IMG/VR virus record: IMGVR_UViG_2609459844_000006
Location: 1 to 25,248 of that record
Source: a virus
Taxonomy: Duplodnaviria; Heunggongvirae; Uroviricota; Caudoviricetes
Length of the DNA stretch: 25,248 nucleotides
Strand: one strand, 5' to 3'
The notes under the pieces were generated by a model. That model worked only from the letters and a program-made list of their open reading frames with translations, did no database searches and had not been told where the DNA came from. Below, piece by piece: positions 3,458-23,869 of this stretch (position 1 is its first letter; every line of letters starts with the position of its first letter). The position numbers and the translations under genes are program-made.

Positions 3458-3993
3458 GCGGCGCATTGGCGCAGCTCCGCCAGTTCGTTAAAGCGGTTCA
3501 TGAACAGGCCATAGGATTGACCTGGACGGAGAGGGATAACCTGAACGAGATCAGAGCAGGGAATACCTTCGAGAATTTCCCACTTCGAACCGTTATCGAT
3601 TTCCAGATCACGGCGCTCGGTAGCTAACATGGTTAGATCGGCGTATTTCACGACGGCAGATTGCTCAAGCGGGATACCGAATTTAAAGCGGATAAGACCA
3701 TCAACATAAGTTTCCATGCGCTGGTAGTCAGGCAGCAAGGCTTTGAGCGGGGCTGGAATATCCTGGCAATATGCCTCCGCAGCGTCGTGCATCAACGCTT
3801 CAAAGGCGAACTCTGGCGGCACAATCTGGCTTACAAGCACAGAGTGCTGGGCCACGCTGTAGAACTCTGGCAGATGCCCAGCGAATCGACAGATGTTGGA
3901 AAGAGCAGTCGCGATATCCTCAACATCGATATCGTCGATTGTGGCGGTCAGGTAGTTAAATTTTTTACCGGATAATGTCTGAATGTAGCTCAT
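3454..3993 (-). CDS. HD-domain phosphohydrolase (YfdR-like, 5'-deoxynucleotidase-type)
   Basis: H..HD motif (ALMHDAAEAY) typical of HD-superfamily metal-dependent phosphohydrolases; start set at internal ATG 3993 preceded by GGAGAAAACC. Confidence 0.6.
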   Translation of the reverse strand: MSYIQTLSGKKFNYLTATIDDIDVEDIATALSNICRFAGHLPEFYSVAQHSVLVSQIVPPEFAFEALMHDAAEAYCQDIPAPLKALLPDYQRMETYVDGLIRFKFGIPLEQSAVVKYADLTMLATERRDLEIDNGSKWEILEGIPCSDLVQVIPLRPGQSYGLFMNRFNELAELRQCAA

Positions 3994-4086
3994 GGTTTTC
4001 TCCATATTGGCGCGCTGCACCACGCAGATTTTGGTTGCACGAATCCCTCGCCGGATGGCGATAATTAATGGAATTACGCTTCAATA

Positions 4087-4110
4087 AATCCCCGCGGCGC
4101 CGGGGATTTA
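4087..4110 (-). terminator. putative intrinsic terminator/attenuator hairpin within early-left operon
   Basis: 9-bp GC-rich inverted repeat (AAATCCCCG ... CGGGGATTT) directly downstream of the YfdQ-like stop; on the minus strand followed by TTTATTG. Confidence 0.35.
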
Positions 4111-4121
4111 ATGCAGAGCAA

Positions 4122-4949
4122 TTAGGCTTTAAAGTTACCGATGAAAGTTTCCACTGATTCACCTTCGAACTTGCTGATCAGCAAATCGCGGAATTCATTG
4201 GCGATAGCTTCTTCCTGGGCTTCCAGTTGTACTATGCGCAGTACAAAACGAGGTTCATCACCTGTAAGCAAACTGTTGCGTAAGCTAAAGCGGCGTTCGC
4301 CTAAACCTTCATACGGCACACATTTGAATTCGAACGCTACCGGCATTACGTCTTTGCTGCTGGCTTCAATACTCTGCATAAGCGATTTTTTGCCGCTGAA
4401 ATCGCTGTCTTCATGATCCTGCTGGGTTGCCTGCTGGATAGTTATACGACGAACAGCCTGGGCGGCTTGTGAAATCTGCATCGTATTGCCATCAGCATCG
4501 AACGCCAGCAGGTAATCGCTCCAGTCTTCCAGCCACTCGGCGATCTGTTTTTGTTTCAGACGCTCACCGTTGATCTGGAGAAGAGCACGGAAAGGTGCGG
4601 TCTGTTTCAGGGTGATGGATGCAACATTGTCCGCATGACCGGGGTTATCGAGTGTGCCGATGTTGAACACTGAACGGGCGGTCATGTTGTCAGCGTCAAT
4701 AAAGCAACGAGCTGGCTCACTTTCGCTGGCATAGCCTTTTGAATAACGAGCAAAATCTTCAATGCTGGTCGTGGTCATGGCACCGCGGAAGCGGAAACGC
4801 TCCAGAGAAAAACGCTCGAGGCTTTCAATGCCGGTACCCTCTGGCAGTAATGCGGTCGGGCAAGCCAGGCCATGAATATCATTCAGGTGGTAGCCAGAAA
4901 GGACCAGGTCTTTTACCTGCTGAAATGTACCGCTGTCTAACTGGGACAT
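4122..4949 (-). CDS. YfdQ-like prophage protein (DUF2303-type), function unknown
   Basis: 275-aa ORF with AAGGAA SD; gene order P-Q-HD matches the yfdP-yfdQ-yfdR arrangement of E. coli CPS-53-type prophages (from memory). Confidence 0.55.
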   Translation of the reverse strand: MSQLDSGTFQQVKDLVLSGYHLNDIHGLACPTALLPEGTGIESLERFSLERFRFRGAMTTTSIEDFARYSKGYASESEPARCFIDADNMTARSVFNIGTLDNPGHADNVASITLKQTAPFRALLQINGERLKQKQIAEWLEDWSDYLLAFDADGNTMQISQAAQAVRRITIQQATQQDHEDSDFSGKKSLMQSIEASSKDVMPVAFEFKCVPYEGLGERRFSLRNSLLTGDEPRFVLRIVQLEAQEEAIANEFRDLLISKFEGESVETFIGNFKA

Positions 4950-5005
4950 ATAAATTCCTTATTAACTGATGATCGAAGAGGTATCAGTGAATTTTTTGTT
5001 GCGGA

Positions 5006-9823: not shown

Positions 9824-10739
9824 AATCGTTCAATCGCTGTCGGGGCAAAGGAATAGCATCACCATTCCGGTCCCGTACCTCGATTATTTCTCCGGCGATC
9901 AGCAGGCGCATGCTTTGGGCGCTGTGCTAAACCAGCTCGTGTTCTGGTCTGGTAAATCAGATCTGAATGATGGCTGGTTTTATAAAGAGCACAGCGAGCT
10001 TGCGGCAGAGATTCGCGGCGTGAGTGAAGATCAGGTGCAGCGCCTGGTAAACAAGATTTGTACCCGCTGGCTACCAGGGGTTGTTGAAAAGGCGCAGCGA
10101 CAGGTAAACGGCACGAAAAAGACGCATTACCGTATCAATGGCGAAGCGCTAATCAATGTTTTATTCCCGGCAACGCTGGATTCCGCAGAATCGCGGAACG
10201 GGAAACGCGAAGTCGCGGAACCTATTCCGCAGAATCACGGAACCGAAAACGCAGAATCGCGGAACCCTAACCGCGAAGTCGCGGAACCTATTCTCTATAC
10301 AGATCATTACTCAGATCACCACAAACAGATCATTAACCCCTCTTGTCCGGTTGCGCCGCAACCAGACCCTGAGGTGTTGATCACTGATAACGCCATCCTG
10401 GTTTTAACTCATTTGAACCAGGTAAGCGGCTCCCGGTACCAGAAATCTAAAACCTCTCTGGAAAACATACGTGCCCGTCTGCGTGAAGGTTATACCGTCA
10501 GCGACTTAACGCTGGTGATTGACCTCAAGCATGAACACTGGAACGGCAATGACGTGCAGTATCAGTACATGCGGCCTGAAACTCTGTTTGGGCCGAAAAA
10601 ATTTGAGGGTTATCTGCAAAGCGGGCTCCGCTGGGATAAGAAAGGCCGTCCCCCTCGTGAAAGCTGGGGCGAGAAGAAACATGACCCGATGAAGTTCGGC
10701 CCGGTAGATACCAAAATTCCAGAGGGATTCAGAGGATGA
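9807..10739 (+). CDS. phage replication initiator (O-like; conserved phage C-terminal domain)
   Basis: 310-aa ORF at the O position; internal DNA iterons within the coding sequence as in lambda O; C-terminal region resembles the conserved phage replication C-terminal domain. Confidence 0.65.
   Translation: MSQIFEIVQSLSGQRNSITIPVPYLDYFSGDQQAHALGAVLNQLVFWSGKSDLNDGWFYKEHSELAAEIRGVSEDQVQRLVNKICTRWLPGVVEKAQRQVNGTKKTHYRINGEALINVLFPATLDSAESRNGKREVAEPIPQNHGTENAESRNPNREVAEPILYTDHYSDHHKQIINPSCPVAPQPDPEVLITDNAILVLTHLNQVSGSRYQKSKTSLENIRARLREGYTVSDLTLVIDLKHEHWNGNDVQYQYMRPETLFGPKKFEGYLQSGLRWDKKGRPPRESWGEKKHDPMKFGPVDTKIPEGFRG
10183..10293. repeat. ori-like iterons (five ~18-22 bp direct repeats, core GAATCGCGGAACC / GAAGTCGCGGAACCTATTC)
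   Basis: Direct repeats at about 10183-10199, 10206-10227, 10226-10243, 10250-10267 and 10271-10293 inside the replication gene, encoding the repeated peptide AESRNGKREVAEPIP. Confidence 0.55.
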
Positions 10740-11488
10740 TTGAAAACAAATACTGCCGCGCGCTGGCCGAACTGCGTTCAAAACCAGCTCACGAATTGAA
10801 AGAAGTTGGCGATCAGTGGCGGACACCGGATCTGCTTTTATGGGGTATCAACGCGCTATTTGGTCCATTAGTTCTGGACTTGTTTGCTGACGACGACAAC
10901 GCGAAATGCCCAGCATGGTACACCGCCGAAGATAACGCACTGACGCAGGACTGGTCTGAACGTCTGGCAGAACTGGGTGGCGCGGCTTTTGCCAACCCTC
11001 CATATAGCCGCTCGCAGTACCACGAGAAACAGGCGATCACTGGTATGACGCACATCATGAAGTACGCAGCAACCCAGCGCGAGAAGGGCGGTCGCTATGT
11101 ATTCCTGATAAAAGCCGCGCCGAGTGAAACGTGGTGGCCGGAAGATGCCGATCACATTGTATTCATTCGCGGGCGCATTGGTTTCGATCTGCCAGTGTGG
11201 TTTGTACCTGCTGACGAAAAACAGAAGCCCACCAGCGCGTTTTTTTCCGGAGCCATAGCTGTATTCGATAAGTCATGGCGTGGTGAGCGGTTCAGCTATA
11301 TCAACCGTACAGAACTGGAGGCAAAAGGTCGGGCATTTATGGCGCTGGCCCAATTCGCTGTTGGCAAAGAGCCGACAATTGCAATGCGGCCCCCCAGGAT
11401 CCAGTCATACCATCGGAAACTGAGTCACGAATCTGGCCTCTCGAGGTTGGTCTGGTGTTTAACCAGGTGGAAGGCGTTGACGTATTGA
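10736..11488 (+). CDS. phage Dam-family N6-adenine DNA methyltransferase (3' end uncertain)
   Basis: NPPY motif (AFANPPYS) typical of N6-adenine MTases; ATGA overlap with the replication gene stop. Last ~30 codons look non-protein-like and follow a C6 homopolymer at 11390-11395. Confidence 0.65.
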   Translation: MIENKYCRALAELRSKPAHELKEVGDQWRTPDLLLWGINALFGPLVLDLFADDDNAKCPAWYTAEDNALTQDWSERLAELGGAAFANPPYSRSQYHEKQAITGMTHIMKYAATQREKGGRYVFLIKAAPSETWWPEDADHIVFIRGRIGFDLPVWFVPADEKQKPTSAFFSGAIAVFDKSWRGERFSYINRTELEAKGRAFMALAQFAVGKEPTIAMRPPRIQSYHRKLSHESGLSRLVWCLTRWKALTY

Positions 11489-11731: not shown

Positions 11732-12117
11732 TGAGGCTCATACTCCCATTTCCACCCAGCGTGAACACTTACTGGCGCGCTCCTAACAAGGGGGCGCTGG
11801 CTGGTCGTCACCTCATTAGCGCTGAAGGCCGTAAATACCAGAGCGCTGCCTGCGTGGCGATCATTGAGCAATTACGACGTCTCCCGAAGCCATCGACTGA
11901 ACTGGCTGCGGTAGAAATCACTCTGTACCCGCCGGATGCGCGCCGCCGGGATATCGATAATTACAACAAAGCCCTGTTTGACGCGCTGACGCATGCGGGT
12001 GTCTGGGAAGATGACAGCCAGATTAAGCGCATGCTGGTGGAATGGGGACCCGTAGTGCCGAAAGGTCGGGTAGAGATAACGATCAGCAGATATGAACCGG
12101 CGGGGGCAGCCGCCTGA
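11731..12117 (+). CDS. rusA: RusA-family Holliday junction resolvase
   Basis: N-terminus MRLILPFPPSVNTYWR and ~128-aa size are characteristic of RusA endodeoxyribonuclease; location in the nin-like region. Confidence 0.85.
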   Translation: MRLILPFPPSVNTYWRAPNKGALAGRHLISAEGRKYQSAACVAIIEQLRRLPKPSTELAAVEITLYPPDARRRDIDNYNKALFDALTHAGVWEDDSQIKRMLVEWGPVVPKGRVEITISRYEPAGAAA

Positions 12118-12130
12118 TATGGAGAAAAGT

Positions 12131-12817
12131 ATGAGCCAGTTAATCGTGAATGGTGTAGTAACAATGTCCAGCCGTGATATTGCGGATCTGGTTCAGAGTA
12201 AACACAGTGACGTGAAACGCTCGGCTGAGCGTCTTGTTGCTGCGGGAATTTTAACCGCGCCATTGGCGCAGTTCGATTTTGAGCATAACGGTAATGTGTA
12301 CCAGGAGTATCGTTTTAACAAACGCGACTCTCTGGTGATTGTTGCCAGACTGTCACCTGAATTTACCGCCGCGGTCGTCGATCGCTGGCAGGAACTGGAA
12401 GAAGGGCAGAGTGTCAGTGTTCCCCGCTCATTACCGGAAGCGCTTCGCCTGGCTGCTGATTTAGCCGAGCAGAAAGAGCAACTGACGATCCAACTGGCAG
12501 CCGCGGCGCCAAAAGTGGAGTTTGTTGATCGTTATTGCTCAGCAAAAGGCTCCATGTCATTCCGGCAGGTAGCCAAATTGCTTAACGCAAAAGAAACTGA
12601 GTTTCGTCTGTTCCTTATTGAACGCAATATCCTGTATCGCCTCGGCGGCACACTTACCCCCATGGCGCAGCACATTTCCGCGGGAAGATTTGAAGTTAAG
12701 ACGGGAACATCGAGCACATCCAATCACGCATTCAGCCAGACGCGTTTCACTGCCAAGGGAGTACGCTGGATTGGTGGTTTGTGGGCTGAACATATTGCAG
12801 GGGGGCAAGCGGCGTGA
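12131..12817 (+). CDS. Rha-family phage regulatory protein / antirepressor (KilAC-type C-terminal domain)
   Basis: Start at ATG 12131 with GGAGAAAAG SD; N-terminal Rha-like segment (LIVNGVVTMSSRDIADLV..KHSDVKR) and antirepressor-like C-terminal domain. Confidence 0.65.
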   Translation: MSQLIVNGVVTMSSRDIADLVQSKHSDVKRSAERLVAAGILTAPLAQFDFEHNGNVYQEYRFNKRDSLVIVARLSPEFTAAVVDRWQELEEGQSVSVPRSLPEALRLAADLAEQKEQLTIQLAAAAPKVEFVDRYCSAKGSMSFRQVAKLLNAKETEFRLFLIERNILYRLGGTLTPMAQHISAGRFEVKTGTSSTSNHAFSQTRFTAKGVRWIGGLWAEHIAGGQAA

Positions 12818-13809
12818 GGGCTTTGTTAACTCCTGAAGTAGCCCATCGCATGGGGATTGTGTTGTTTCGTCCCGGCGCGGAACTGATGCACCTCTTCATG
12901 CGCGGTCGCGTCCTTCTCGAACCTGAACCAGAAGAAATGGCGTCATTCAGTACAGGAGCTGTTCCCGCCGCCATTCAGCCGCTGGCTGATGATCCGGTAA
13001 TGCGGCAGGTCTTCGGGAATGAGCGGGTTATTCAGCGTGCCGGTGGGCTTCCTTCCCTTGAGCAATGGTTGAGTACCCGGTTTGATTGCCAGTGGCCACA
13101 TTCATCGTGGCACGACAAGAACTTCACAACAATGCGGCACCCACCAGGAAGCATTCGCCTGTGCTGGCATTGCGATCACACTTTGTCCGGGCAGCATACT
13201 GAACAGCTTGCAGTTATAGCTGCCGGAAACCTGGTATCCTGGATTCTGGAAGTCATTCGGCGTGATTCTGGTTTTCCCGAGTCGCATATCCTGACGCTTC
13301 CGGAACTGTGCTGGTGGATGGTCAGAAACGACCTGGCTGATGTTATTCCGGAAAGCGTTGCGCACAGGGGGTTGCGCCTTCCGGATGAGAAGATCCGCTC
13401 TGTCATGAGGGAAAGCGACATAGTGCCTTCCCCGTCTGCAACCAGCCTCGTGCAGAAGAAAGCGAAGAAGATCCTCACGCTCTCTGTTGATCCGGAGTCG
13501 CCAGAATCTTTCATGCTCAGGCCAAAACGCCGCCGCTGGGTAAATGAGACATACACCCGCTGGGTTAAAACACAACCCTGTGAGTGTTGCCGAGGGCCAG
13601 CAGATGATCCGCACCATATCGTAGGGCACGGTTTGGGTGGTACAGCAACAAAAGCCCATGACCTCTTCGTGATCCCTCTGTGCAGAGAGTGCCACGACGA
13701 GTTACACGCCGATGTACCGGCATTCGAGCAGAAGCATGGTACGCAGCTTGAGCTGCTACTGCGTTTTATGGATCGGGCGCTGGCGATCGGCGTAATTGCG
13801 AAAGCTTAA
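12814..13809 (+). CDS. DUF968-like prophage protein with C-terminal Cys/His zinc-binding (HNH-like) motif
   Basis: GTG start overlapping upstream stop (GTGA) with G-rich SD; C-terminus CECC..HH..CRECH cluster; resembles YdfU-type prophage proteins (from memory). Confidence 0.5.
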   Translation: MRALLTPEVAHRMGIVLFRPGAELMHLFMRGRVLLEPEPEEMASFSTGAVPAAIQPLADDPVMRQVFGNERVIQRAGGLPSLEQWLSTRFDCQWPHSSWHDKNFTTMRHPPGSIRLCWHCDHTLSGQHTEQLAVIAAGNLVSWILEVIRRDSGFPESHILTLPELCWWMVRNDLADVIPESVAHRGLRLPDEKIRSVMRESDIVPSPSATSLVQKKAKKILTLSVDPESPESFMLRPKRRRWVNETYTRWVKTQPCECCRGPADDPHHIVGHGLGGTATKAHDLFVIPLCRECHDELHADVPAFEQKHGTQLELLLRFMDRALAIGVIAKA

Positions 13810-14520
13810 GTGTATGGAGCGCTGAGAAACATGAATCAACAAGACCTGAACTTTGTCAGAATAGAACTGCGTCGCGCGCTACCTGACCTCTCTGGGGGAA
13901 CAAAAGGGCAGCTTGAGGCTTTCAGTGAACACCCACCAGCAGACAAAAATGCCACCCCGCGCCGTGGCATTCATCTCGTTGAACTCGAGGGAGAGGAGGG
14001 GCCTCGCTTTGTTAACTCTCTTTCCGCACCACTTTATGTGCTGGAAACACGCAGCCGCCGCAGACCAATGGCGCCAATAAAGGATATGGAGTTTGCATAC
14101 GCACCGTGGCGCCGTGCTGTTAATGCTCTCGACGATTACCAGCAGGCCTGGCTGCGTTACTGCTACGGCTTTGATTTGAGCTATAAACACCAGGTGATAA
14201 TGTGTGAGCACGTCTGGAAAAACTATCAGGATTGCCTCATTAAAAACCCGATGCAGTCCCGCGTGGTAAAGAAACTGATCGGCCTGGTATGGCTGGCAGG
14301 TCAGGAGGTTGCCGCCGAAAGGAACAATGAAACCTATAAGGATTATGCTGGCGCGGCGTTGGCCCGCATGGTTAGCGTTGACCGTTCGACATGGTTGCGT
14401 GTCTATTCAGGGCACTGGGCTGGGTTAAAGGCCGCTTTTATCCAGCTTGATGAGTCTGCGCTGGCTATAGCTCTTGAATACTATGAGGAAGAAGAAGCCC
14501 TCAAAGTGGCAGAAATGTGA
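13810..14520 (+). CDS. putative late-gene antiterminator (Q-like); start uncertain (GTG 13810 or ATG 13831)
   Basis: Immediately upstream of a promoter-like element and a short-transcript intrinsic terminator preceding the late/lysis region; assignment is positional. Confidence 0.45.
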   Translation: MYGALRNMNQQDLNFVRIELRRALPDLSGGTKGQLEAFSEHPPADKNATPRRGIHLVELEGEEGPRFVNSLSAPLYVLETRSRRRPMAPIKDMEFAYAPWRRAVNALDDYQQAWLRYCYGFDLSYKHQVIMCEHVWKNYQDCLIKNPMQSRVVKKLIGLVWLAGQEVAAERNNETYKDYAGAALARMVSVDRSTWLRVYSGHWAGLKAAFIQLDESALAIALEYYEEEEALKVAEM

Positions 14521-14550
14521 AGTAAATTTCACTATCTCCTTCAAACTCGC

Positions 14551-14579
14551 TTGCAAAATGCAACAAAATAAGCCATATT
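14551..14579 (+). promoter_or_regulatory. candidate late promoter (PR'-like): TTGCAA -17 nt- CATATT
   Basis: -35-like TTGCAA (14551-14556) and weak -10-like CATATT (14574-14579), about 35 nt upstream of an intrinsic terminator; eye-called only. Confidence 0.25.
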
Positions 14580-14612
14580 TGAAGCATATTTGATATGTTG
14601 CCAAAGTTCTAT

Positions 14613-14640
14613 AAACCCGCCAATGAGCGGGTTTTTTAAT
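14613..14640 (+). terminator. intrinsic terminator (tR'-like) downstream of Q-like gene
   Basis: AAACCCGC-CAATGA-GCGGGTT hairpin followed by TTTTTT. Confidence 0.7.
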
Positions 14641-14988
14641 TTTGCGGATAACTTTTTAATTGCTGGAAAGAGTGTTTTTTCGTTTTGATAGGAAAAAACG
14701 ATGAGTCGGTAACACAAGGCTCCAATGTGCGTAAGTATGATGGATATGATAGTTATGCACAGTATGTCAACAGCGTTCTGCTATTAATTATGTTGTGAAT
14801 AACCTTTTTTGTTGATAACTATTTTTTCTGTGGATAAGTCTATGGGTTTATTAAATTTTTATGCACAAGTAGAACGCTAATGATCCTGTACAATCCCGTA
14901 AAAGCTTCAATACTGATGACAGCAAGATAAAAACCTAACCAGTGAAGCTATTGAAAACATACAGGATTTGGTTTTCTTTGGGAAAATT

Positions 14989-15744
14989 ATGTCAGGACAG
15001 CCTGAGTCAAAAGAACAAGAACTGCTTACAACTATCCTCGATTACTTCCAGAAGGGAGAAATCCCGGATACAGAAACTATTTCGGAAATAGAGCACGATA
15101 TTGCTAAACTTCCAATAAGTGAGCGCGCACATGCGTATGCTTGGCTCAATGGCACTCTTGGGCGTCACTCTGATGCTGTACGTTTATTCAAAGACGCGAT
15201 GAGCTCTGGGAATTCCACGATCGCGCAAAACTACTTGGCGTATCTTTCTCGTTCGGCTCATAACTATGAGCATCGCGTTGAGTTGTTTAGATTGGTTGAA
15301 CTTTTCCCCTCACACGAACTGAGGCTTGTTGCAAGAAACGCTGCATTTTGTATCGGCAATGATAAATTGGTTAAAAAGTTCTCCCTCAAAATGGCTGCTC
15401 TTTATGATGGTCAGGAGCGAGAGGATATAATCAATCAGGGAAACTATATGGTTGAACAGATTGTTGATTTCAAAAACGCTACCCGTCTTTCTTCTAGAGA
15501 ACTAGAAGTTCTTTGTGATCGAGCTGAAGAGATTGCGAACAAGCGTGGTATTAACTGTTCAAGTGTTAGCTATTACCTTGGGGGTGATGATGACAATGCA
15601 TTCATCGTCAGAGCCCAAACTGCTGATCCGCAGGTTTTAGCTGAAATGAACATGGAACTGTTGGTTTTGCTCTCAGATGATAGTTATCGGAACAGTCCTT
15701 TTACATCCTGGTTCCAAAGTGATGAAAAACGAGGGATTTACTGA
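14989..15744 (+). CDS. hypothetical alpha-helical protein, cargo gene A of Q-to-lysis moron
   Basis: Start at ATG 14989 (MSGQPESKEQ...); AT-rich; no recognisable catalytic motif; stop overlaps start of gene B by 1 nt (TGATG). Confidence 0.5.
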   Translation: MSGQPESKEQELLTTILDYFQKGEIPDTETISEIEHDIAKLPISERAHAYAWLNGTLGRHSDAVRLFKDAMSSGNSTIAQNYLAYLSRSAHNYEHRVELFRLVELFPSHELRLVARNAAFCIGNDKLVKKFSLKMAALYDGQEREDIINQGNYMVEQIVDFKNATRLSSRELEVLCDRAEEIANKRGINCSSVSYYLGGDDDNAFIVRAQTADPQVLAEMNMELLVLLSDDSYRNSPFTSWFQSDEKRGIY

Positions 15745-16148
15745 TGAGCGTAACTGGGAAGGATTTTATTTTTTTTGCTGGTAAGTGCATTTCTCACAAC
15801 GATGAAATCGGTTACAGAAACGCCATTGGTCGCGCGTATTATGGAGTTTATCATGAAACACTTGATAAGCTTGAGAAGTGCCCAAACAAGTCATCACACC
15901 AAGCTGTTCGTGACTACCTTACAAATGACGCATGGTTAAAAGGAAATGAGCCGTTTGAAAAAATGAAACTCATTTCTATGGGAACAATGCTAAGACATTT
16001 GCATACCCGCCGTAAATGGGCAGATTACGAGCTTGATAGAACTTTAAGTAAGGCTGATGCAGAAGCTATATTAATCATGGCTAATAAAGCTATAGATACC
16101 CTTCAGCAAATGTATGAGCAGGTTTATCCATCCGAACCTGCTGCTTGA
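15744..16148 (+). CDS. hypothetical protein with Rx6H HEPN-like motif, cargo gene B of Q-to-lysis moron
   Basis: 134-aa ORF; motif GRAYYGVYH (R-x6-H) fits the HEPN Rx4-6H signature, though HEPN motifs are more often C-terminal; followed by two tandem intrinsic terminators. Confidence 0.5.
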   Translation: MSVTGKDFIFFAGKCISHNDEIGYRNAIGRAYYGVYHETLDKLEKCPNKSSHQAVRDYLTNDAWLKGNEPFEKMKLISMGTMLRHLHTRRKWADYELDRTLSKADAEAILIMANKAIDTLQQMYEQVYPSEPAA

Positions 16149-16164
16149 TTATCTATTCGAAATA

Positions 16165-16187
16165 ACCTCGCTTAGGCGGGGTTTTTT
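16165..16187 (+). terminator. intrinsic terminator 1 after cargo operon
   Basis: CCTCGC-TTAG-GCGGGG stem-loop (one G:U pair) followed by TTTTTTT. Confidence 0.6.
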
Positions 16188-16197
16188 TATGTCTTCG

Positions 16198-16220
16198 CAC
16201 CTCCATTTCGGAGGTGTTTT
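16198..16220 (+). terminator. intrinsic terminator 2 after cargo operon
   Basis: Perfect 7-bp stem CACCTCC-ATTTC-GGAGGTG followed by TTTT. Confidence 0.65.
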
Positions 16221-16358
16221 GCTGTGGAAATGGGCGGCTGGTGGGTGTTAGCGCACCCGGCCAGCCATCAGCTCATGCTTTCAGGTCACAAGCTAACCAA
16301 GGCCCACTGCTTTAGCGCAAAAGCAACGTGAGCCTATCAGAGTTACGCTTACTGATCT

Positions 16359-17411
16359 ATGGAAAATACTGTAAAAATAAACAGTATCGAGTTAATCAAC
16401 GCTGATAGCCTGCATTACGTCGCCACCCTCCCGGATAACTCTATTGATCTGATAGTTACGGATCCGCCTTACTTCAAAGTGAAGCCCAACGGCTGGGACA
16501 ACCAATGGAAAGGGGACGAGGACTACTTACGCTGGCTTGATAGCTGTCTGGCTGAGTATGCTCGCGTTCTTAAACCTGCTGGCAGCATTTACCTGTTTTG
16601 CGGTCACCGACTGGCCTCAGACATAGAGATTATGATGCGTGCCCGGTTCAACGTTTTGAATCATATAATTTGGGCAAAACCATCGGGCCGCTGGAATGGT
16701 TGTAACAAAGAAAGCCTGCGTGCGTACTTTCCATCTACGGAACGGATTTTGTTTGCAGAGCGCTATCCTGGCCCGTACACAGGTAAAGAGGATGTTTACG
16801 AAAGGAAAAGCACAGAGCTAAAGCAGCACATTATGACGCCGCTGATTGATTACTTCCGTAATGCCCGTGAATCACTGGGTGTCAGTGCGAAAGAAATAGC
16901 TGAGGCAACCGGAAAGAAAAACATGGCGTCACACTGGTTTGGTGCAAGCCAATGGCAACTACCGAATGAAGTGGACTACAAAAAATTACAGGAACTATTC
17001 ACGCGGATCGCTATCGATAAGCACATTCAGCAGAAGCTTGAACATCCTCACCACCAGCTGGTGGCTACCTACCAGTCATTAAACCGCAAGTATTCAGAAT
17101 TGCTGGAGGAATACAAAATCCTTCGGCGCTGCTTCTCTGTTTCCGCTCTTGTTCCGTATACCGACGTATGGACGCATAAGCCTGTTCAGTTTTATCCAGG
17201 CAAACATCCATGCGAAAAACCTGCCGATATGCTGAAGCAGATCATTAGCGCCAGCAGCAGGCCGGGGGATATCGTTGCCGATTTCTTTATGGGTTCTGGT
17301 TCAACGGTGAAAGCTGCAATAGCACTTGGCCGTCGGGCTATCGGTGTAGAACTGGAAGCAGACAGGTTTATTCAGACCACTGAAGAGGTGGAAAAACTGA
17401 ACAAAACATAA
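16359..17411 (+). CDS. orphan DNA methyltransferase (N6-adenine/N4-cytosine, beta-class motif order)
   Basis: DPPY motif (LIVTDPPYF) near N-terminus and FxGxG SAM-binding motif (FFMGSGST) near C-terminus; no adjacent restriction endonuclease candidate. Confidence 0.8.
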   Translation: MENTVKINSIELINADSLHYVATLPDNSIDLIVTDPPYFKVKPNGWDNQWKGDEDYLRWLDSCLAEYARVLKPAGSIYLFCGHRLASDIEIMMRARFNVLNHIIWAKPSGRWNGCNKESLRAYFPSTERILFAERYPGPYTGKEDVYERKSTELKQHIMTPLIDYFRNARESLGVSAKEIAEATGKKNMASHWFGASQWQLPNEVDYKKLQELFTRIAIDKHIQQKLEHPHHQLVATYQSLNRKYSELLEEYKILRRCFSVSALVPYTDVWTHKPVQFYPGKHPCEKPADMLKQIISASSRPGDIVADFFMGSGSTVKAAIALGRRAIGVELEADRFIQTTEEVEKLNKT

Positions 17412-17557
17412 CGATCATCACGCCCCTGTGGATGTGGTGAGCACCATTTTCAGGCACCGGGAATCATCCTTACTTTTATTTGAACAAAAGAGCCCGGTTG
17501 CCTGATTCCACATCCCCTCATTTCTGAGAGGAATCACAGCAATTAAGAGGGGGCTAA

Positions 17558-17944
17558 ATGTCCGATCCGATTTCCGGTTCTGGGATGGCTGGTGGTGTCC
17601 TGACGGGGGCCAGCGTCTATGGATTTCTGTCCGGAACCGATTACGGCGTGGTGTTTGGCGCATTTGCCGGGGCTGTATTTTACATTGCAACCGCAGCGGA
17701 TCTAAGTGCAGCGCGCCGACTGGCATATTTTCTGGTGTCGTATATCGCGGGGATCCTTTGTTCCGGGCTGGTGGGTTCAAAGCTGGCTCAGGCTACCGGC
17801 TACAGTGATAAACCACTGGATGCCATTGGCGCCGTAATCGTTTCTGCTTTAGCCGTCAAAATCCTGACATTCCTGAATAATCAGGATGTCGGCTCGCTGG
17901 TGGCGCTGATAACGCGCCGGGGAGGTTCAGGTGGTACAAAATGA
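17558..17944 (+). CDS. putative holin (small multi-TM membrane protein)
   Basis: 128-aa ORF with AGAGGGGG SD; Gly/Ala-rich hydrophobic segments consistent with 3 TM helices; immediately upstream of endolysin. Confidence 0.55.
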   Translation: MSDPISGSGMAGGVLTGASVYGFLSGTDYGVVFGAFAGAVFYIATAADLSAARRLAYFLVSYIAGILCSGLVGSKLAQATGYSDKPLDAIGAVIVSALAVKILTFLNNQDVGSLVALITRRGGSGGTK

Positions 17945-19427: not shown

Positions 19428-19751
19428 ATGATGTCATCATTTAGTAAAATAACATCTGCCTTAGATAAATTATCTAAGTTCAGATCTGATAGTTTTGAAG
19501 TAGTTAAAGGTTATATTGATTTCGTTATGCCAATGGTGGCTAAGGCACAAGAACTCAAAATGAAAGAAGATGATGGAACTATCTCCGATGAAGAAAAGAT
19601 TCTGATTAAATTTTATGACGCGCATTTTGAAGATTTTAAAACGGCATTGAACAAAATTTCTCAGTATAATGATTCGGTATCTGATAACTATATTAAGGCA
19701 ATTGATTTGCTTGGTGATGTTAAGGAGAACATTAACAATGCAGATAAATAA
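19428..19751 (+). CDS. hypothetical soluble acidic protein, AT-rich cargo gene 1
   Basis: 107-aa ORF in strongly AT-rich DNA; no recognised motif. Confidence 0.4.
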   Translation: MMSSFSKITSALDKLSKFRSDSFEVVKGYIDFVMPMVAKAQELKMKEDDGTISDEEKILIKFYDAHFEDFKTALNKISQYNDSVSDNYIKAIDLLGDVKENINNADK

Positions 19752-20118
19752 TGTCTCAGATATGTCTAATCTGCTTGATTCATTGAAAAAACAAGTAGGT
19801 AAAGCTGAAGATGCTGCTGATGATGCAGAGGGTAAGGCTAACTCCAGTTCAAAAAACGAAGGTAAAACACGCAGTGCGCTCACGATTAGTTTTTTAGTCG
19901 GTTTCTTCGTGTTGATTGCACTTAGTGGCTTGTTTGTGCTTTGGTATAATAACAGTGTTGTGTCATGGGTTATAAATTTGCAACAGGCAGGAGTTTCAGA
20001 TGCCTCAACTTATCTGAAACCTTTGGAGTTAGAAAAAGTCTTGTCTGTAATAATCGGAGCATTAGGCACATCACTTGGTTTTATTATTGGTTATTATTTT
20101 AAAGAAAAAAATAAATAG
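19738..20118 (+). CDS. hypothetical 2-TM membrane protein, AT-rich cargo gene 2
   Basis: Start at ATG 19738 with AAGGAGAAC SD; two hydrophobic helices (ALTISFLVGFFVLIALSGLFVLW and LSVIIGALGTSLGFIIGYYF); overlaps gene 1 by 14 nt. Confidence 0.45.
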   Translation: MQINNVSDMSNLLDSLKKQVGKAEDAADDAEGKANSSSKNEGKTRSALTISFLVGFFVLIALSGLFVLWYNNSVVSWVINLQQAGVSDASTYLKPLELEKVLSVIIGALGTSLGFIIGYYFKEKNK

Positions 20119-20240
20119 CTGTTTTCAGACTTAAACACCCTCGATTACTAACTTCAAGTTTATGGGGGTGTTATATCAAACATAATTAATTCAATGCGTT
20201 CTGAAATATTATTTAAATTTTAAAATCTAGTAGATACAAT

Positions 20241-20264
20241 GCCTCGCAATCGCGGGGCTTTTTT
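20241..20264 (+). terminator. intrinsic terminator after AT-rich cassette
   Basis: GCCTCGC-AATC-GCGGGGC hairpin followed by TTTTTT. Confidence 0.55.
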
Positions 20265-20363
20265 ATGCGCATCGCACGTACACATCGAAGAAATCTTAGT
20301 CATCAGTCCGGACGGGCGCTTACATACCCAGTCCGCCCGTTACCTTTTAAAATGGAAAAGCCA

Positions 20364-21107
20364 ATGAAAGCCAAAGAATTTTTGAACAGCCATAAACTTG
20401 TGGTTATCAGTGATTTTATAAAAAGCATTGAAGCCATCCCTGAACAGAAATGGCTGCATGACTTTATGCAGGATGAATTAGCCTATCTGATTGAACGTGG
20501 TATGAACTGGGCAAAATTCGATGATGATGTGCCTGCTGAGATGATTCGAAGCGCTGCATGGTTAGTGGCTATGTCTAAAGCCTACTCAGGAAATTATCCC
20601 GTGAAACAGGTAGCCAATCCATCTCAAATAATTCAGGCATGGAGTGTTAAAAAAGATGGCAAACAGTATGCAGCCACTTTTAAAATAGCCATTGATACCA
20701 GTGAGGCTATTGCTGCTGTTGAAGTACTGGGTAAGAAAATTAAAGATGTTATTAATTCATTATCTATCGAAGATGAAATTAAAATTAAAAAATATGAATT
20801 ATCACATCTGACTTCCAGAAGTATGAATAAAGAAATGGTTGAACGTATCAGGCATATAGTTGATAAAGCTGCGAAGCATTGTCTTGATGGCCGGGCTATC
20901 CCAGAACAGAATAATAAAATTTCAGAAGCAACTTTCTGCTCTGTTGAGAGCACCGGCAGCATTGAACAGCAAGCGTTGAGCACTGTACTTGGAAATACCT
21001 TACACAATATTCCAGTCAGTGATGCTTCTTCTGTGGCGGTTGAGTTAGCTCAGGCTGTGAAAGCAGCATTTGATGTGCTGGAAAATAAGAATGCCGCCAC
21101 GCGCTAA
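20364..21107 (+). CDS. hypothetical protein (248 aa), function unknown
   Basis: Start chosen at ATG 20364 (MKAKEFLNSH...); ORF-track start 20265 lies inside the upstream terminator T-run and is unlikely. Confidence 0.45.
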   Translation: MKAKEFLNSHKLVVISDFIKSIEAIPEQKWLHDFMQDELAYLIERGMNWAKFDDDVPAEMIRSAAWLVAMSKAYSGNYPVKQVANPSQIIQAWSVKKDGKQYAATFKIAIDTSEAIAAVEVLGKKIKDVINSLSIEDEIKIKKYELSHLTSRSMNKEMVERIRHIVDKAAKHCLDGRAIPEQNNKISEATFCSVESTGSIEQQALSTVLGNTLHNIPVSDASSVAVELAQAVKAAFDVLENKNAATR

Positions 21108-21453
21108 ACGCCCATGCCGGCACAAGGGATGTGCGGCAATCACCAACGATACCAGCGGGTATTGTGAACAACACCGCCAGCAGCATGCCGGTGATGGCTG
21201 GCGCAACTATCAGGCAGGTAAAAGCAGGCAAGAACGAGGGTACGGTCGGCCCTGGGAAATCATACGGGCGCGCATCCTCCGGCGTGATCAATACCTGTGT
21301 CAGAAGCATCGACGGCAGAAGATAGCGAAGAAAGCGACCAGCGTTGACCACATCATTCCAAAAGCTCATGGCGGCACTGATGACGATTCCAACCTAGAGT
21401 CGTTATGCTGGGAATGCCACAGAGCGAAGACAGCAAGAGAACGTATTCGATGA
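21091..21453 (+). CDS. HNH endonuclease (phage packaging-associated type)
   Basis: Classic HNH motif VDHIIPKAHGGTDDDSNLESLCWECHRAKT plus N-terminal Cys cluster; start assumed at ATG 21091. Confidence 0.75.
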   Translation: MPPRAKRPCRHKGCAAITNDTSGYCEQHRQQHAGDGWRNYQAGKSRQERGYGRPWEIIRARILRRDQYLCQKHRRQKIAKKATSVDHIIPKAHGGTDDDSNLESLCWECHRAKTARERIR

Positions 21454-21538
21454 TAATATTCACTGCTGTAATGCATAAGAACAGTTTCTACATTCATGCA
21501 GATACCGGAAGATAAACGCGCAGCTTAAAGAGTCAGAC

Positions 21539-23869
21539 ATGGCGGCCAGCGTCGCCAAACAACGGGTGGCTGCGGCGGGAAAGGCAGCGGCAGAAGCGGA
21601 GGCACTGGAAGCACTCGGAAAGTCGAAGCTCTCGGATGCTATGCGTCTTATCAGCGCCAGGAACTATGAGATTTCTCTGTCAGCGCGTGCCGCCGCCGCG
21701 GGTACCGCGTTGCTGAACGGTGCACTGGCGATGGTAGGCGGGCCGGTCGGTCTGGGGATTATTGCGCTGGTTTCTGGCGTGACGGCACTGTGGTCTGCCT
21801 ACAGCAAAGCTGAAGAAAAAACGAAAGCCCTGAATGCGGCATTACTGCAAGGCAATAGTGGCGCGTCACTCAGCCTGACCCGGATCCGGGCGCTGAATAA
21901 AAGCCTGGGTGACACGGATGGCTCCATGAAGGCAGTGACGGCCGCGGTTAAGGCCGGGTTCAGCGGCGAGATGCTGGATCGCGTGTCCTCACTCGGTAGC
22001 CAGCTGGAATCACTGGGTGGGAATGCTGATGAGCTGGTCCGACAGCTGTCATCCATCAGTGGCGATCCGATCAAAGCGATGCAGGATGCCACGCAGCAGG
22101 GATACGAATTTAATGCTGCACAGATAGAACAGATTGCCACCCTGGCCCGCCTGGGTAAAACCGCCGAGGCGGTGGCGCTGGTGCAGAAAATCATGCTTGA
22201 TGACGTTGCGGACAAAATGAAGGAGCAACAGCGTCAGACTGAGGAGAGCATTGGCTGGTGGGAGAAGCTGAAGAAAGCTGTTTCTGAAGGGCTTGAGGGC
22301 TACGCTTCAGCGCAGATTGAGACCAGTCGCGCGATGGCGGCCGCGGTGGGGGTGGATATTGATGAGCCCGCCCGAAAGCTCAAAGAGAAGCGGGACGAAG
22401 AGAATAAACAGGAGGAAGACCGGGCTCAGGCCGCCCGTCAGCGCCAGGATGAGCAGAGCAAAGAAATCACCGCCCGGATAAATCTGGCCGCCTGGATCAA
22501 GGCCGGGACGGATAAAACCCGTCTTGCAGCAGAAGCCACCGCCGATCTCAGTACCCGCTATAAGGCCGGAAAAATCACCGCTGATGAGTACGCTTCTGCC
22601 CTGAGAGGGATAGACAAACTCTACGGTGATAAAAAAACCGGGGTGTCCGCCCATCAGGACAGCGAGGGTGTTCGCCGTCTGGCGCAACTGAAGCAACAGG
22701 AAGTGGTGCTGAAAGCGCAGGGGCGTGAAACGGAGCGGATGGGTGAAAGTCAGAAAAAATTACTGGCTTTTGAACAGGAAATCGCGTCTTACGCCGGGAA
22801 AAAACTGACAAAGGCCCAGGAAAGCGTACTGGCTATGCAGGATCAACTGCGTGCCCAGCTTGAAACTAACGCAGCCCTGGAGAAGCAAAACGCACAACGT
22901 AATCTGGCTGTGACGCTTGAAAAACAACTCCGGGATGTCAGGGAGGAAACGGCACGCCGTCAGCAGGAGCAGAATAACGCTGCTGCTCAGGTGACGATGA
23001 GCGACCGGGAATATGAGCAGATGGTCACCCTGCAACAGATCCGTGAGGATTTTGCGCAGAAACAGAAAGCGCTCGATGAGGAGGTAAAAGACCATTCATC
23101 AGTGCTTTACCAGGCACAGACACAGGCGCTTGCCGAAGAAATGCAGAGGCAGACTGAAATCGTCAAAAAAGGCGCCGAAGACAAAAAAGCGGCTGAGGAG
23201 GATTTTGCGGGAGCTGCCGCCGCAGGCATGAAGAACTGGATGGACAAGGCCGGTAACTATGCACAGCAGATAAAGGACGCTGTGTCGAGCGCCATGGACG
23301 GGCTGGCGGATAATATTGTCGCCACCCTTAACGGCAATAAAAGCTCATGGCGTGACTGGGGGACGATGATACTCCAGACCATTCAGAAAATTCTGGTGAA
23401 TGCCGCGCTGGTTAACGGCCTGAAGGCACTGGGCGGATCACTGGGTGGTGCCGGAGGGATCCTGGGAGGGATTGGCAGTGCAATTTCCGGTGTGGTGGGT
23501 AATGCCCGGGGGGGCGTCTATGACTCTCCGGGACTCAGTGCTTACAGCTCTACTGTCGTCGACAGGCCCACGCTGTTTCCGTTTGCCAAAGGGGCGGGAC
23601 TGATGGGGGAAGCGGGGCCGGAAGCGATTATGCCGCTGACCAGAGACAGTAAAGGTCGTCTGGCCGTCACCGCGACGGGAATGGAAGGGACGGGAGGTAG
23701 CGTGGTGGTTAATCAGCAGTTCAGTGTGCACATACAGAATGACGGCAGTAACGGTGAAATAGGCCCCGGCGCGCTGAAGATGGTGTATGAGATTGCCGAA
23801 CAGGCAGCAATGAAAACACTGACTGTGCAGGGGCGTGATGGTGGCAGGCTGAGCGGAGCATACAGATGA
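21539..23869 (+). CDS. tail tape measure protein (lambda gpH-like), probably N-terminally truncated
   Basis: 776-aa Ala/Gln/Glu-rich coiled-coil protein; C-terminal region (GPEAIMPLTRDSKGRLAV ... NDGSNGEIGPGALKMVYEIAEQ ... RDGGRLSGAYR) matches the gpH C-terminus; N-terminus appears to lack roughly the first 80 residues of lambda H. Confidence 0.8.
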   Translation: MAASVAKQRVAAAGKAAAEAEALEALGKSKLSDAMRLISARNYEISLSARAAAAGTALLNGALAMVGGPVGLGIIALVSGVTALWSAYSKAEEKTKALNAALLQGNSGASLSLTRIRALNKSLGDTDGSMKAVTAAVKAGFSGEMLDRVSSLGSQLESLGGNADELVRQLSSISGDPIKAMQDATQQGYEFNAAQIEQIATLARLGKTAEAVALVQKIMLDDVADKMKEQQRQTEESIGWWEKLKKAVSEGLEGYASAQIETSRAMAAAVGVDIDEPARKLKEKRDEENKQEEDRAQAARQRQDEQSKEITARINLAAWIKAGTDKTRLAAEATADLSTRYKAGKITADEYASALRGIDKLYGDKKTGVSAHQDSEGVRRLAQLKQQEVVLKAQGRETERMGESQKKLLAFEQEIASYAGKKLTKAQESVLAMQDQLRAQLETNAALEKQNAQRNLAVTLEKQLRDVREETARRQQEQNNAAAQVTMSDREYEQMVTLQQIREDFAQKQKALDEEVKDHSSVLYQAQTQALAEEMQRQTEIVKKGAEDKKAAEEDFAGAAAAGMKNWMDKAGNYAQQIKDAVSSAMDGLADNIVATLNGNKSSWRDWGTMILQTIQKILVNAALVNGLKALGGSLGGAGGILGGIGSAISGVVGNARGGVYDSPGLSAYSSTVVDRPTLFPFAKGAGLMGEAGPEAIMPLTRDSKGRLAVTATGMEGTGGSVVVNQQFSVHIQNDGSNGEIGPGALKMVYEIAEQAAMKTLTVQGRDGGRLSGAYR

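Follow-up and report, generated by a model that had tools for sequence, protein, structure and literature searches.

Organization of the locus

The window, by which we mean the whole 25,248-nucleotide stretch of DNA that was analyzed, carries two adjoining genes, here called A and B, downstream of the gene for a Q antiterminator. The features of the locus are listed below with positions counted from the first letter of the window.

13810 to 14520, + strand: Q antiterminator gene (PF06323 E 1.5e-37, phrog_304), prophage backbone, outside the cassette
14613 to 14644, + strand: tR′-like intrinsic terminator, an 8-bp GC-rich stem followed by a T-run, at the left edge of the variable slot
14638 to 16209, + strand: exchangeable cargo segment (moron), made up of the leader, gene A, gene B, and their own terminator
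14989 to 15744, + strand: gene A, 251 aa from ATG, a TPR-like putative non-enzymatic partner, sensor, or antitoxin
15744 to 16148, + strand: gene B, 134 aa, a HEPN-fold (UPF0332/PF05168-type) putative RNase effector
16164 to 16190, + strand: the cassette's own intrinsic terminator, hairpin and U-tract
16197 to 16224, + strand: second intrinsic terminator, hairpin and U-tract, at the right junction with the backbone
16359 to 17411, + strand: orphan N6/N4 DNA methyltransferase gene, backbone context (PF01555 E 4.5e-44; PADLOC MTase_II E 3e-142)

A sequence-only reading of this DNA had proposed an AT-rich two-gene unit bounded by terminators, and this description was confirmed in each of its parts. 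The open reading frames at 14989–15744 and 15744–16148 share a 1-nt stop/start overlap (TGATG), and the start assigned to gene A is the same M that all of its homologues use. The GC content of the cassette is 0.35–0.42 as compared with about 0.53 in the flanks, and a hairpin with a U-tract is present at each terminator, spanning 14613–14634 at the tR′-like element upstream (MFE −16.6 kcal/mol, z −3.2) and 16164–16183 and 16197–16217 at the pair 3′ of gene B (folding z −4.2). A gene pair with the partner gene first and an overlap has the classical antitoxin-toxin layout. An Rfam scan gave nothing above threshold, and its matches below the gathering score all lay on the terminator hairpins. Unlike in Stx phages, a search for tRNA genes gave none. 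The same reading had placed the unit between Q and the lysis genes; the cassette does follow Q, but the methyltransferase gene at 16359–17411 separates it from the lysis genes.

The cassette is exchanged between prophages

The prophage of Nissle 1917 is collinear with the window as far as position 14637 and again from 16210, which is inside the second terminator hairpin, and in that prophage 14638–16209 is replaced by 1.8 kb of unrelated genes. Other sibling prophages also hold different cargo in the Q-to-lysis slot, so that the question raised earlier, whether related prophages vary at this site, is answered by both. PADLOC recognized no defense gene in the alternative cargos of the slot. An exact look-up of the Q protein returned the same prophage only and is uninformative on cargo variation. 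A 93% identical copy of the cassette segment occurs in 12 of the 5426 E. coli genomes; two of these copies were inspected, and their prophage backbones differ from each other. In two other cassette-bearing loci (L022 and L023), the cassette's own terminator moves along with the genes, with homology extending to 16187–16194. The segment therefore has the attributes of a moron, namely extra DNA between backbone genes that is present or absent in siblings, a deviant composition, and its own terminator, and the data support an insulated and mobile cargo unit, two genes long, whose Q-to-lysis slot is hypervariable.

Members of the A-B family occur frequently in Enterobacterales and Vibrio prophages and at loci ranging from 38 to 68% GC, and clustering of the genes that flank the pair gave 46 clusters upstream and 59 downstream. 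The positions occupied include late-region, integrase-end, tail-fiber, baseplate, and chromosome-junction sites. In a P2-like Vibrio phage, the pair has the portal/late-control genes on one side and replication gene A on the other, the position at which P2 carries old/tin. A megablast search with the cassette gave no match among 50,697 deposited phage genomes, and tblastn with B found three phages only, all annotated "hypothetical."

A and B are strictly linked

In the first fetches, which were protein- and DNA-based and seeded with A, B, or cassette DNA, B was directly downstream of A in all 44 of the 44 A-B loci. A B-seeded scan, for which the helix-2 motif of B was written as a degenerate DNA pattern, gave 168 B matches, of which 161 have an upstream ORF of 243–290 aa, truncated in some cases by the end of the locus. 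Among the 93 distinct upstream proteins, 92 belong to one A superfamily. When size-matched control ORFs were searched with the iterated A profile, 3 of 271 matched; two of these are clear A genes whose neighboring B is truncated where the locus stops, and the third (L061), which is followed by a B motif at the edge of its locus, is probably another A. No nucleotidyltransferase (NTase) gene was seen next to A-B in any inspected locus. A and B are a strictly linked pair that moves as a unit, and they are co-oriented, overlapping, and co-inherited in the manner of a toxin-antitoxin (TA) or abortive-infection (Abi) module.

The leader contains a cluster of DnaA-box matches

A conserved leader of about 300 bp moves together with the cassette. 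A promoter-like region had been proposed upstream of gene A, which was not borne out in that form, as a sigma-70 consensus scan of the + strand from 14300 to 17600 found no promoter-like site. What the leader holds instead is a series of DnaA-box matches and a conserved TACAAT.

14643 to 14867, no single strand: cluster of DnaA-box (TTATNCACA) matches
14753 (+), 14794 (−), 14829 (−, perfect TTATCCACA), and 14859 (+): exact DnaA-box matches
14643 (−), 14726 (−), and 14810 (−): DnaA-box matches with one mismatch
14889 to 14894, + strand: TACAAT, candidate −10 of a cassette promoter, within the block CTGTACAATCC and missed by the consensus scan

There are five exact DnaA-box matches in the whole window as compared with 0.74 expected, and four of them are within 115 bp of the leader. 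The cluster is kept in the cassettes of E. coli and L022 and is absent from the alternative Nissle cargo. The block CTGTACAATCC is kept in the window, in the E. coli copy, and in the 76%-identical L022 cassette, while the neighboring bases diverge, and from this conservation TACAAT may tentatively be taken as a −10 element. In other clades, the leaders contain TTGACA-type elements. A literature search on DnaA boxes combined with anti-phage function returned nothing relevant. Because the cassette lies within the Q-dependent late transcription unit in this prophage, it could be expressed in the lytic phase rather than in the lysogen.

Gene A encodes a TPR-like protein without an enzymatic signature

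The product of gene A has a TPR-like helical repeat (about residues 8–136), long helices, and a C-terminal alpha/beta region (about residues 169–244), in keeping with the helical partner that had been anticipated. The sequence-only reading had recognized neither protein, and neither A nor B gives a significant match in Pfam, NCBIfam, or PADLOC. For A, no curated family in the three libraries was matched, and ten diverse members of its superfamily searched along with A itself gave no PDC-M05 match, nor any other PADLOC model at E below 0.03. We detected no DNA-binding domain in A, no match to an NTase family, and no conserved set of catalytic-type residues. An MNT-like or other enzymatic antitoxin was considered for A and rejected, given that conserved catalytic-type residues and similarity to NTases are both missing, and since A is no nucleotidyltransferase, neutralization of B by AMPylation is unlikely. 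A diverges faster than B (27% vs 47% identity in one example and 45% vs 57% in another). The families of the two proteins correspond to PHROGs 17809 and 5176, both of which are entries with no function assigned.

Gene B encodes a HEPN-fold protein

The AF2 model of B (pLDDT 93.5) has as its core a four-helix up-and-down bundle that can be superposed on solved HEPN domains. A search of the PDB with a profile of the B family retrieved 9xbd (E 8.5e-13) and 2hsb (E 5.9e-8). Of 66 diverse relatives, 29 match PF05168 (best E 9.4e-9) and 38 match the PADLOC model HEPN_IX, the latter collinearly over both halves, so that the C-terminal part of the model is included. One close homologue of B (P0019) has a precomputed PF05168 match. 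Searched alone, B was below significance against all Pfam, NCBIfam, and PADLOC models, and its only PADLOC match was to PDC-M05B (E 0.012, 48 residues); the pair does not belong to PDC-M05 because both components are needed and A matches none. A representative search for the B family gave 2,779 small-protein clusters at E ≤ 0.001, and among the 150 listed, almost all are 100–155 aa. From these results, B is a HEPN-fold protein of the UPF0332/PF05168 ("HEPN-T") clade. Literature searches on the E. coli B protein (WP_000116520), on 9XBD, and on HEPN with UPF0332 returned nothing relevant.

The candidate active site of B is non-canonical

Three stretches of gene B bear on whether and how it could be catalytic.

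15828 to 15854, + strand: codons G29–H37 (GRAYYGVYH), the "Rx6H" of the sequence-only reading, a helix-2 family motif
15897 to 15899, + strand: codon H52, a candidate catalytic histidine with which helix 3 begins
16011 to 16028, + strand: codons R90-K-W-A-D94-Y95 in helix 4, at the canonical Rx4-6H position with D for H

The HEPN assignment had been made from GRAYYGVYH, and while the fold proved right, the reason given for it was wrong. The motif is present, and its R30 and H37 are invariant in 22 homologues, but it is on helix 2 and away from the HEPN catalytic position. It corresponds to the motif "sRAYYAxfH" in helix 2 of UPF0332-type HEPN proteins and aligns with "SRAYYAMFY" in 9xbd, "STAYYAMFH" in 2hsb, and "NRYYYACF" in the HEPN protein of Retron-Kva2. 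The equivalent of H37 varies in solved relatives, being Y in 9xbd and F in the Retron-Kva2 HEPN. Mutation of R30 and H37 would not be a decisive test of B.

B has no canonical Rx4-6H where the last core helix begins. At that position, R90-K-W-A-D94-Y95 aligns with "R..SDY" of 9xbd and 2hsb, and for PF05168 it is recorded that "D replaces conserved H" (Anantharaman et al. 2013, Table 1). Across the 66 relatives, R25, Y32, Y33, R90, and Y95 are invariant, and conservation reaches at least 90% for E21, R30, H37, H52, and D94; H52 is also invariant in alignments A1 and A4. The Retron-Kva2 HEPN is without Rx4-6H and has H64 and R122 as its catalytic residues (bioRxiv 10.64898/2026.07.14.738597), and H52 aligns with this H64 in a weak match (E 0.14) that covers the N-terminal half only. 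By analogy with the H64/R122 pair, the catalytic residues of B are likely to be H52 and R90. When the PDB was searched with a profile of only the C-terminal half of the B family, the Retron-Kva2 HEPN was not recovered, and for that reason the equivalence of R90 and R122 is one that we infer.

Comparison with known HEPN systems

The best structural and sequence matches of B are the UPF0332/PF05168 proteins (AF0298, 2hsb; TT1696, 1ufb; ST0689, 1wol; and 9xbd), which like B have RxxxDY in place of Rx4-6H and a conserved His elsewhere (Anantharaman et al. 2013). Proteins of this type are usually paired or fused with a minimal nucleotidyltransferase, whereas B has a TPR-like partner and is prophage cargo. 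The type IX retron HEPN (Retron-Kva2; PDB 36ht) resembles B in being small, in having no Rx4-6H, and in its N-terminal "R..a..R.YY" motif, and for its conserved His in helix 3 and Arg in helix 4 the candidates in B are H52 and R90. It cleaves rRNA and tRNA, is toxic alone, and is inactive when wrapped by its partner (bioRxiv 10.64898/2026.07.14.738597), and this caging is the logic that we propose for A. The retron partner is a winged-helix protein, however, while A is TPR-like and of an unrelated family; the Kva2 HEPN is 174 aa as compared with 134 aa for B, which itself has no HEPN_IX match; and no reverse transcriptase, ncRNA/msDNA, or winged-helix gene was found in the window or related loci.

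The HEPN-MNT (HepT/MntA) type VII TA systems also consist of two genes with the partner first. HepT is a dimer-forming HEPN RNase toxin, and a conserved Tyr lies by the active-site helix in both cases, Y95 in B and the AMPylated Tyr of RX4HXY in HEPN-MNT. They differ from A-B in that no MNT is present at the A-B locus and RX4HXY is absent from B. For abortive infection by a prophage-encoded HEPN protein, there are precedents in HepS (Gifsy-1; PMC13043305) and Tha (S. aureus prophages; PMC11087260), but these are single self-sensing proteins with a canonical Rx4-6H, unlike A-B with its obligatory TPR-like partner and non-canonical site. The predicted LA2681 and AbiU2 systems (Anantharaman et al. 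2013, Table 1) are like A-B in that HEPN is in an operon with a TPR/Sel1 protein. Their HEPN domains, however, retain Rx4-6H and are covered by Pfam models of their own that gave no match to B, and we found no homology of A to their partners.

Proposed function and alternatives

We lean, though only slightly, toward A-B being a TA- or abortive-infection-like module where the RNase activity of B is held back, and perhaps also set off, by A. In this proposal, B would be a small dimer-type HEPN ribonuclease with a non-canonical site formed by H52 in helix 3 and R90 of the invariant RxxxDY in helix 4. A, a fast-evolving and apparently non-enzymatic TPR-like protein, would be made first and be translationally coupled to B, and it would bind B and hold its active site closed. 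On infection, the repeat surface of A might recognize a phage product, or A might be displaced or degraded, and B once freed would cut cellular RNA so that the infected cell stops growing. The pair is described by no curated library (Pfam, NCBIfam, PADLOC) and by none of the publications found, and thus a TA/Abi-type defense role stays the most plausible reading. The three accessions searched were absent from the examined portion of the DefensePredictor supplements. The larger claim, that A-B is an undescribed and widespread prophage Abi family with a TPR-like cage or trigger, a non-canonical HEPN RNase, and DnaA-gated transcription in at least two divergent clades, is rather improbable when taken as a whole.

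The pair could also be a TA module for addiction or stabilization with no part in phage defense, where A is a labile antitoxin, B is a HEPN toxin, and loss of the cassette kills the cell. We consider this unlikely. In its favor, the genes overlap with the putative antitoxin first, the cassette moves as a unit, and it is kept in a seemingly defective prophage without head and packaging genes; HEPN toxins are, moreover, classical TA toxins. On the other hand, A (about 250 aa, TPR) is far bigger than typical type II antitoxins and unlike them, with no DNA-binding domain detected, the insertion sites are typical phage moron or hotspot positions, and TA function and defense can coexist.

Another explanation is that A and B are a late pair that benefits the phage, transcribed from pR′ under Q and acting in host RNA turnover, as a decoy or inhibitor that counters HEPN or retron defenses, or in lysis timing. 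In its favor, RNA polymerase modified by Q has to transcribe across the cassette, given its place between Q/tR′ and the lysis genes, the promoter scan gave no independent promoter, and B resembles a host immune effector, which is a frequent source of mimics. Yet the cassette is also found outside the control of Q, at positions such as the ends of prophages, beside integrases, or between tail genes; it has its own terminator and conserved leader of about 300 bp, with TTGACA-type elements in other clades; and the strict conservation of residues equivalent to catalytic ones argues against a dead decoy. We rate this explanation as improbable.

It is more doubtful still that B is a non-catalytic HEPN adaptor that binds nucleotides or RNA, with A-B serving as a regulatory or scaffold complex. 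The missing canonical Rx4-6H is what speaks for an adaptor, as a HEPN domain without the motif may be non-catalytic, and PF05168-type domains are partly seen as non-catalytic nucleotide- or substrate-binding modules, such as the substrate-binding subunits of NTases (Anantharaman et al. 2013). The same authors point out, however, that in D-for-H clade members activity could be restored by a His conserved at another site. The HEPN of type IX retrons is a proven RNase without Rx4-6H, using His of helix 3 and Arg of helix 4, and H52, R90, and several other polar residues are kept across the wide divergence of B.

Finally, a three-gene restriction-modification-like system of A, B, and the methyltransferase, as might be suggested by the methyltransferase adjoining A-B in the window lineage and E. 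coli copies and by the occasional clustering of HEPN-T genes with R-M operons (Anantharaman et al. 2013), is essentially refuted by distribution: two terminators lie between B and the methyltransferase, a similar methyltransferase segment is in about 639 of 5426 E. coli genomes as compared with 12 with A-B, it occupies the same slot with other cargo or none, it is 79% identical where A and B are 96–98%, and most A-B loci (Morganella, Erwinia, Vibrio, and others) have no methyltransferase neighbor.

Significance

Even if A-B were only an addiction module or a late phage gene pair, annotation would gain from the result, since PHROG 17809 could be labeled a TPR partner and PHROG 5176 a UPF0332-type HEPN protein. 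The A-B family sits in classic cargo hotspots and is missed by current defense finders, and it is a cheap and well-defined candidate for experiments. If the pair is a working defense or toxin module, it would represent a new class of HEPN partner, a TPR-like cage or sensor without a known family, and the non-canonical HEPN active site would extend beyond retrons to a far larger set of proteins. The DnaA-box cluster in the leader may link replication control to the expression of a toxic effector, and if DnaA gating is true, an immune effector would be tied to the replication-initiation state of the cell.

Organization of the A-B cassette

Genes A and B occupy the two ORFs that the sequence-only reading had assigned to them, joined by a 1-nt stop/start overlap (TGATG), and a Shine-Dalgarno sequence, GAGG, precedes gene B. 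The cassette and its neighbors are arranged as follows.

13810-14520, + strand: Q antiterminator gene (PF06323, E 1.5e-37), upstream of the cassette
14613-14634, 16164-16183 and 16197-16217, + strand: intrinsic-terminator-like hairpins with U tracts, from a hairpin scan
14989-15744, + strand: gene A, ORF of 251 aa from the ATG common to all homologues
15744-16148, + strand: gene B, ORF of 134 aa
16359-17411, + strand: orphan N6/N4 DNA methyltransferase (MTase) gene, between the cassette and the holins/endolysin

The terminator hairpins fold far better than shuffled controls (z -3.2 and -4.2), which bears out the tR'-like terminator ahead of the unit and the two tandem terminators after it that had been read from the sequence, and the unit is AT-rich as claimed (GC 0.35-0.42 vs ~0.53 in both flanks). 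A promoter-like region had also been proposed before gene A, but a consensus scan of 14300-17600 found no sigma-70 consensus promoter on the + strand. The proposed Q-to-lysis position holds on the upstream side, where Q is found, but the cassette does not directly adjoin the lysis genes because the MTase gene intervenes.

The cassette is an exchangeable cargo unit

Whether related prophages carry different cargo at this site had been put forward as a check, and they do. A Nissle 1917 prophage is collinear with window positions 12001-14637 (86% identity) and 16210-17509 (95%), and between these blocks it has 1.8 kb of unrelated genes. This cargo (3203-4997 of the Nissle locus L055, in the slot corresponding to window 14638-16209) consists of a 68-aa ORF, a 289-aa "SDH family Clp fold serine proteinase" and a 63-aa ORF, none of the three matching PADLOC. 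Strain 2017-02-2CC has two other hypotheticals in the slot, and strains 1943 and KSC64, both with a Q of the window's type, have an 80-aa ORF and a 261-aa hypothetical, respectively. In E. coli HH97, the antiterminator gene is followed by the MTase gene with nothing between. From the contents in Nissle, KSC64 and 1943, we therefore regard this hotspot as a reservoir of uncharacterised accessory genes.

Of 5426 complete E. coli genomes, 12 carry the cassette, with 93% identity at the DNA level. Two of these copies were inspected, and each belongs to a different prophage backbone with a different Q protein. Against the window, their A and B proteins have 96% and 98.5% identity but the neighboring MTase has only 79%, so the cassette has moved independently of the MTase. 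MTase-like DNA occurs in ~639 of the 5426 genomes, independently of A-B. The cassette is thus a discrete, exchangeable cargo unit.

Several other features of the element were observed. The MTase gene belongs to the prophage backbone, and a second methyltransferase, of Dam type (PF05869), is encoded at 10736-11488. In the gene calls of L008, a locus identical to that of the window, a small YdaS-type gene (PF15943; 8081-8323) adjoins the gene for the S24-peptidase repressor, an arrangement known from cryptic E. coli prophages. In the same calls, the stretch 19428-23869 that follows the lysis genes has a few small ORFs and an HNH protein, then directly a tape-measure protein (21539-23869), and also a minor tail protein, with no terminase, portal or capsid gene called between the lysis genes and the tape measure. 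Despite having the appearance of a deleted or defective prophage, the element retains the A-B cassette.

Genes A and B form an obligate pair

In the first fetches, which were seeded with A, B or cassette DNA, B lies immediately downstream of A in 44 of 44 A-B loci, an order kept down to 25-27% A identity. We also scanned viral contigs with a degenerate DNA pattern derived only from the helix-2 motif of B, and the stretches recovered (at least 119) are nearly all true B-family genes. Among all loci compared, an upstream ORF accompanies 161 of 168 B matches, measuring 243-290 aa where it is intact and in some cases truncated by the end of the locus. Iterative searching joined 92 of the 93 distinct upstream ORFs into one A superfamily (24 clusters at >=40% identity), and the iterated A profile matched only 3 of 271 size-matched control ORFs. 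Of these three, two are plainly A genes that adjoin a truncated copy of B, and the one in locus L061 is probably an A gene as well. A is more divergent than B in every comparison.

The GC content of the host loci spans 38-68%, Klebsiella phages and a P2-like Vibrio phage are among them, and no conserved third gene was found among the 46 upstream and 59 downstream flank clusters. Flanking genes include Q/DUF968, integrases, portal, terminase, tail tube, tape measure, tail fibre, baseplate J, lysozyme/holin, O-antigen acyltransferases, and SmpB and other chromosomal genes. Vibrio phage 10N.286.54.E4_PE001 carries a divergent pair (locus L175, 2723-3917; B, hhalign probability 99.9%; A, iterated-profile E 7e-53) that has the portal/late-control genes on one side and replication gene A on the other, apparently where P2 has its old/tin accessory locus. 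A-B is an obligate pair with a wide distribution.

DnaA-box matches upstream of gene A

A striking cluster of DnaA-box matches (14643-14867) lies in the non-coding leader, which moves together with the cassette. The exact consensus TTATNCACA occurs five times in the whole 25-kb window vs 0.74 expected, and four of the five sites, including a perfect TTATCCACA, lie within 115 bp (14753-14867). Three more leader matches have one mismatch each, and the last box is ~22 nt upstream of a conserved TACAAT. Both the E. coli cassette copy and a copy of 76% identity from a different context retain the boxes, which are absent from the alternative Nissle cargo. Across 91 distinct A-upstream regions their density is 1.16 per kb vs 0.056 per kb in whole loci (~20-fold), with the boxes concentrated in two divergent clades and not universal in the family; in one of these clades an inverted pair, TGTGGATAA-N7-TTATCCACA, precedes a TTGACA element. 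The clustering, conservation and density of the boxes suggest that cassette transcription may be controlled by DnaA or by another dimeric regulator.

In five loci of one cassette clade (L099, L162, L166, L134 and L140), the motif CTATATACATCAAT(G/C)AG(T/C)TA is conserved ~330 nt upstream of A and marks the left edge of this upstream stretch. It may reflect a boundary of recombination or insertion, or a neighboring gene may end there.

Gene B is a predicted HEPN protein with a non-canonical motif

A profile of 22 close B homologues matched PDB 9xbd ("HEPN domain-containing protein") with E 1.8e-5, and a 66-member profile matched 9xbd (E 8.5e-13) and 2hsb (E 5.9e-8). Among the 66 sampled relatives, 29 matched Pfam PF05168 and 38 the PADLOC model for the type IX retron HEPN, collinearly over both halves. 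An exhaustive HMM search gave 2,779 representative clusters (E <= 0.001), the best 150 of which are nearly all ~100-155 aa. These matches identify B as a HEPN protein and agree with the sequence-only reading on the fold, but not on the motif. GRAYYGVYH (R30..H37), which had been taken as the Rx4-6H RNase motif, aligns in every alignment with the helix-2 motif "sRAYYAxfH", and in place of H37 9xbd has Y and the retron HEPN has F.

The canonical Rx4-6H position, in helix 4, is R90-KWA-D94-Y95. This agrees with the remark on PF05168 that "D replaces conserved H", with a possible contribution from a conserved His at another position (Anantharaman et al. 2013). Across the 66 divergent relatives, R25, Y32, Y33, R90 and Y95 are invariant, and conservation reaches at least 90% for E21, R30, H37, H52 and D94. 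As shown in a 2026 preprint, Rx4-6H is also missing from the type IX retron HEPN, which relies on H64 (helix 3) and R122 (helix 4); this enzyme cuts rRNA and tRNA, is toxic by itself, and is kept inactive by a wrapping partner protein and msDNA (bioRxiv 10.64898/2026.07.14.738597). H64 of the retron chain 36ht_I aligns with the conserved His of the B family (H52 in B) in a weak PDB match (E 0.14). Because the C-terminal half-profile of the B family did not recover 36ht_I from the PDB, we only infer that R90 corresponds to R122.

The closest solved relatives of B are 9xbd and 9xbc, for which no paper was found in the literature. Their deposited sequences differ at the Y95 position (DY in 9xbd, DF in 9xbc), as though the depositors had targeted this tyrosine. 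In the B family the corresponding Tyr does not vary, and it may serve in catalysis or as a modification site.

Gene A belongs to a separate family

The close A family is small and isolated, with 33 clusters that are all from Enterobacterales and all full length. A and ten diverse superfamily members matched no family in Pfam, NCBIfam or PADLOC; neither PDC-M05 nor any other PADLOC model matched A with E below 0.03. PHROGs lists both A and B as "unknown function". Among 18 diverse superfamily members that were aligned, only the N-terminal P-x2-K-x2-E-x4-L, A79, N81-Y82, A115, M220-N221-x2-L224 and F242 are well conserved. A79 and N81-Y82 are TPR-type positions, and the alignment contains no catalytic-looking residue set.

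Discussion

The best-supported reading, which we consider somewhat probable, is that A-B is a toxin or abortive-infection-type module. A pure addiction toxin-antitoxin module would also fit a coupled, mobile pair, and is a minor but appreciable possibility. That A-B is a Q-dependent late gene pair serving the phage, counter-defence included, is unlikely; Q does lie upstream here, and elsewhere the pair sits beside integrases and chromosomal genes. It is more doubtful still that B is a non-catalytic HEPN adaptor; the canonical motif is missing, and R90 and H52 are conserved. A three-gene unit with the MTase is essentially refuted by distribution.

In the toxin or abortive-infection reading, A would be made first, translationally coupled to B, and would act as a non-enzymatic partner that cages and neutralises B, a putative dimeric, non-canonical HEPN RNase that would be toxic when released. 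The fast-evolving repeat surface of A would be the likely sensor of a phage cue. The data establish the fold of B, its clade and conserved residues, the A-B linkage, the mobility of the cassette and its hotspot setting; catalysis, toxicity, neutralisation, trigger and phenotype are inferred. In its working, the module would most closely resemble the HEPN-WH pair of type IX retrons, and would also resemble the prophage HEPN abortive-infection proteins HepS (PMC13043305) and Tha (PMC11087260). It belongs to none of these. Unlike type IX retrons, A-B has no RT, msDNA or WH protein; unlike MNT-paired HEPN systems, it has no MNT; and unlike HEPN proteins with the canonical motif, B does not carry it. 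No mention of the E. coli accessions was found in the papers and supplements searched. We rate A-B as a HEPN effector with a new partner family.
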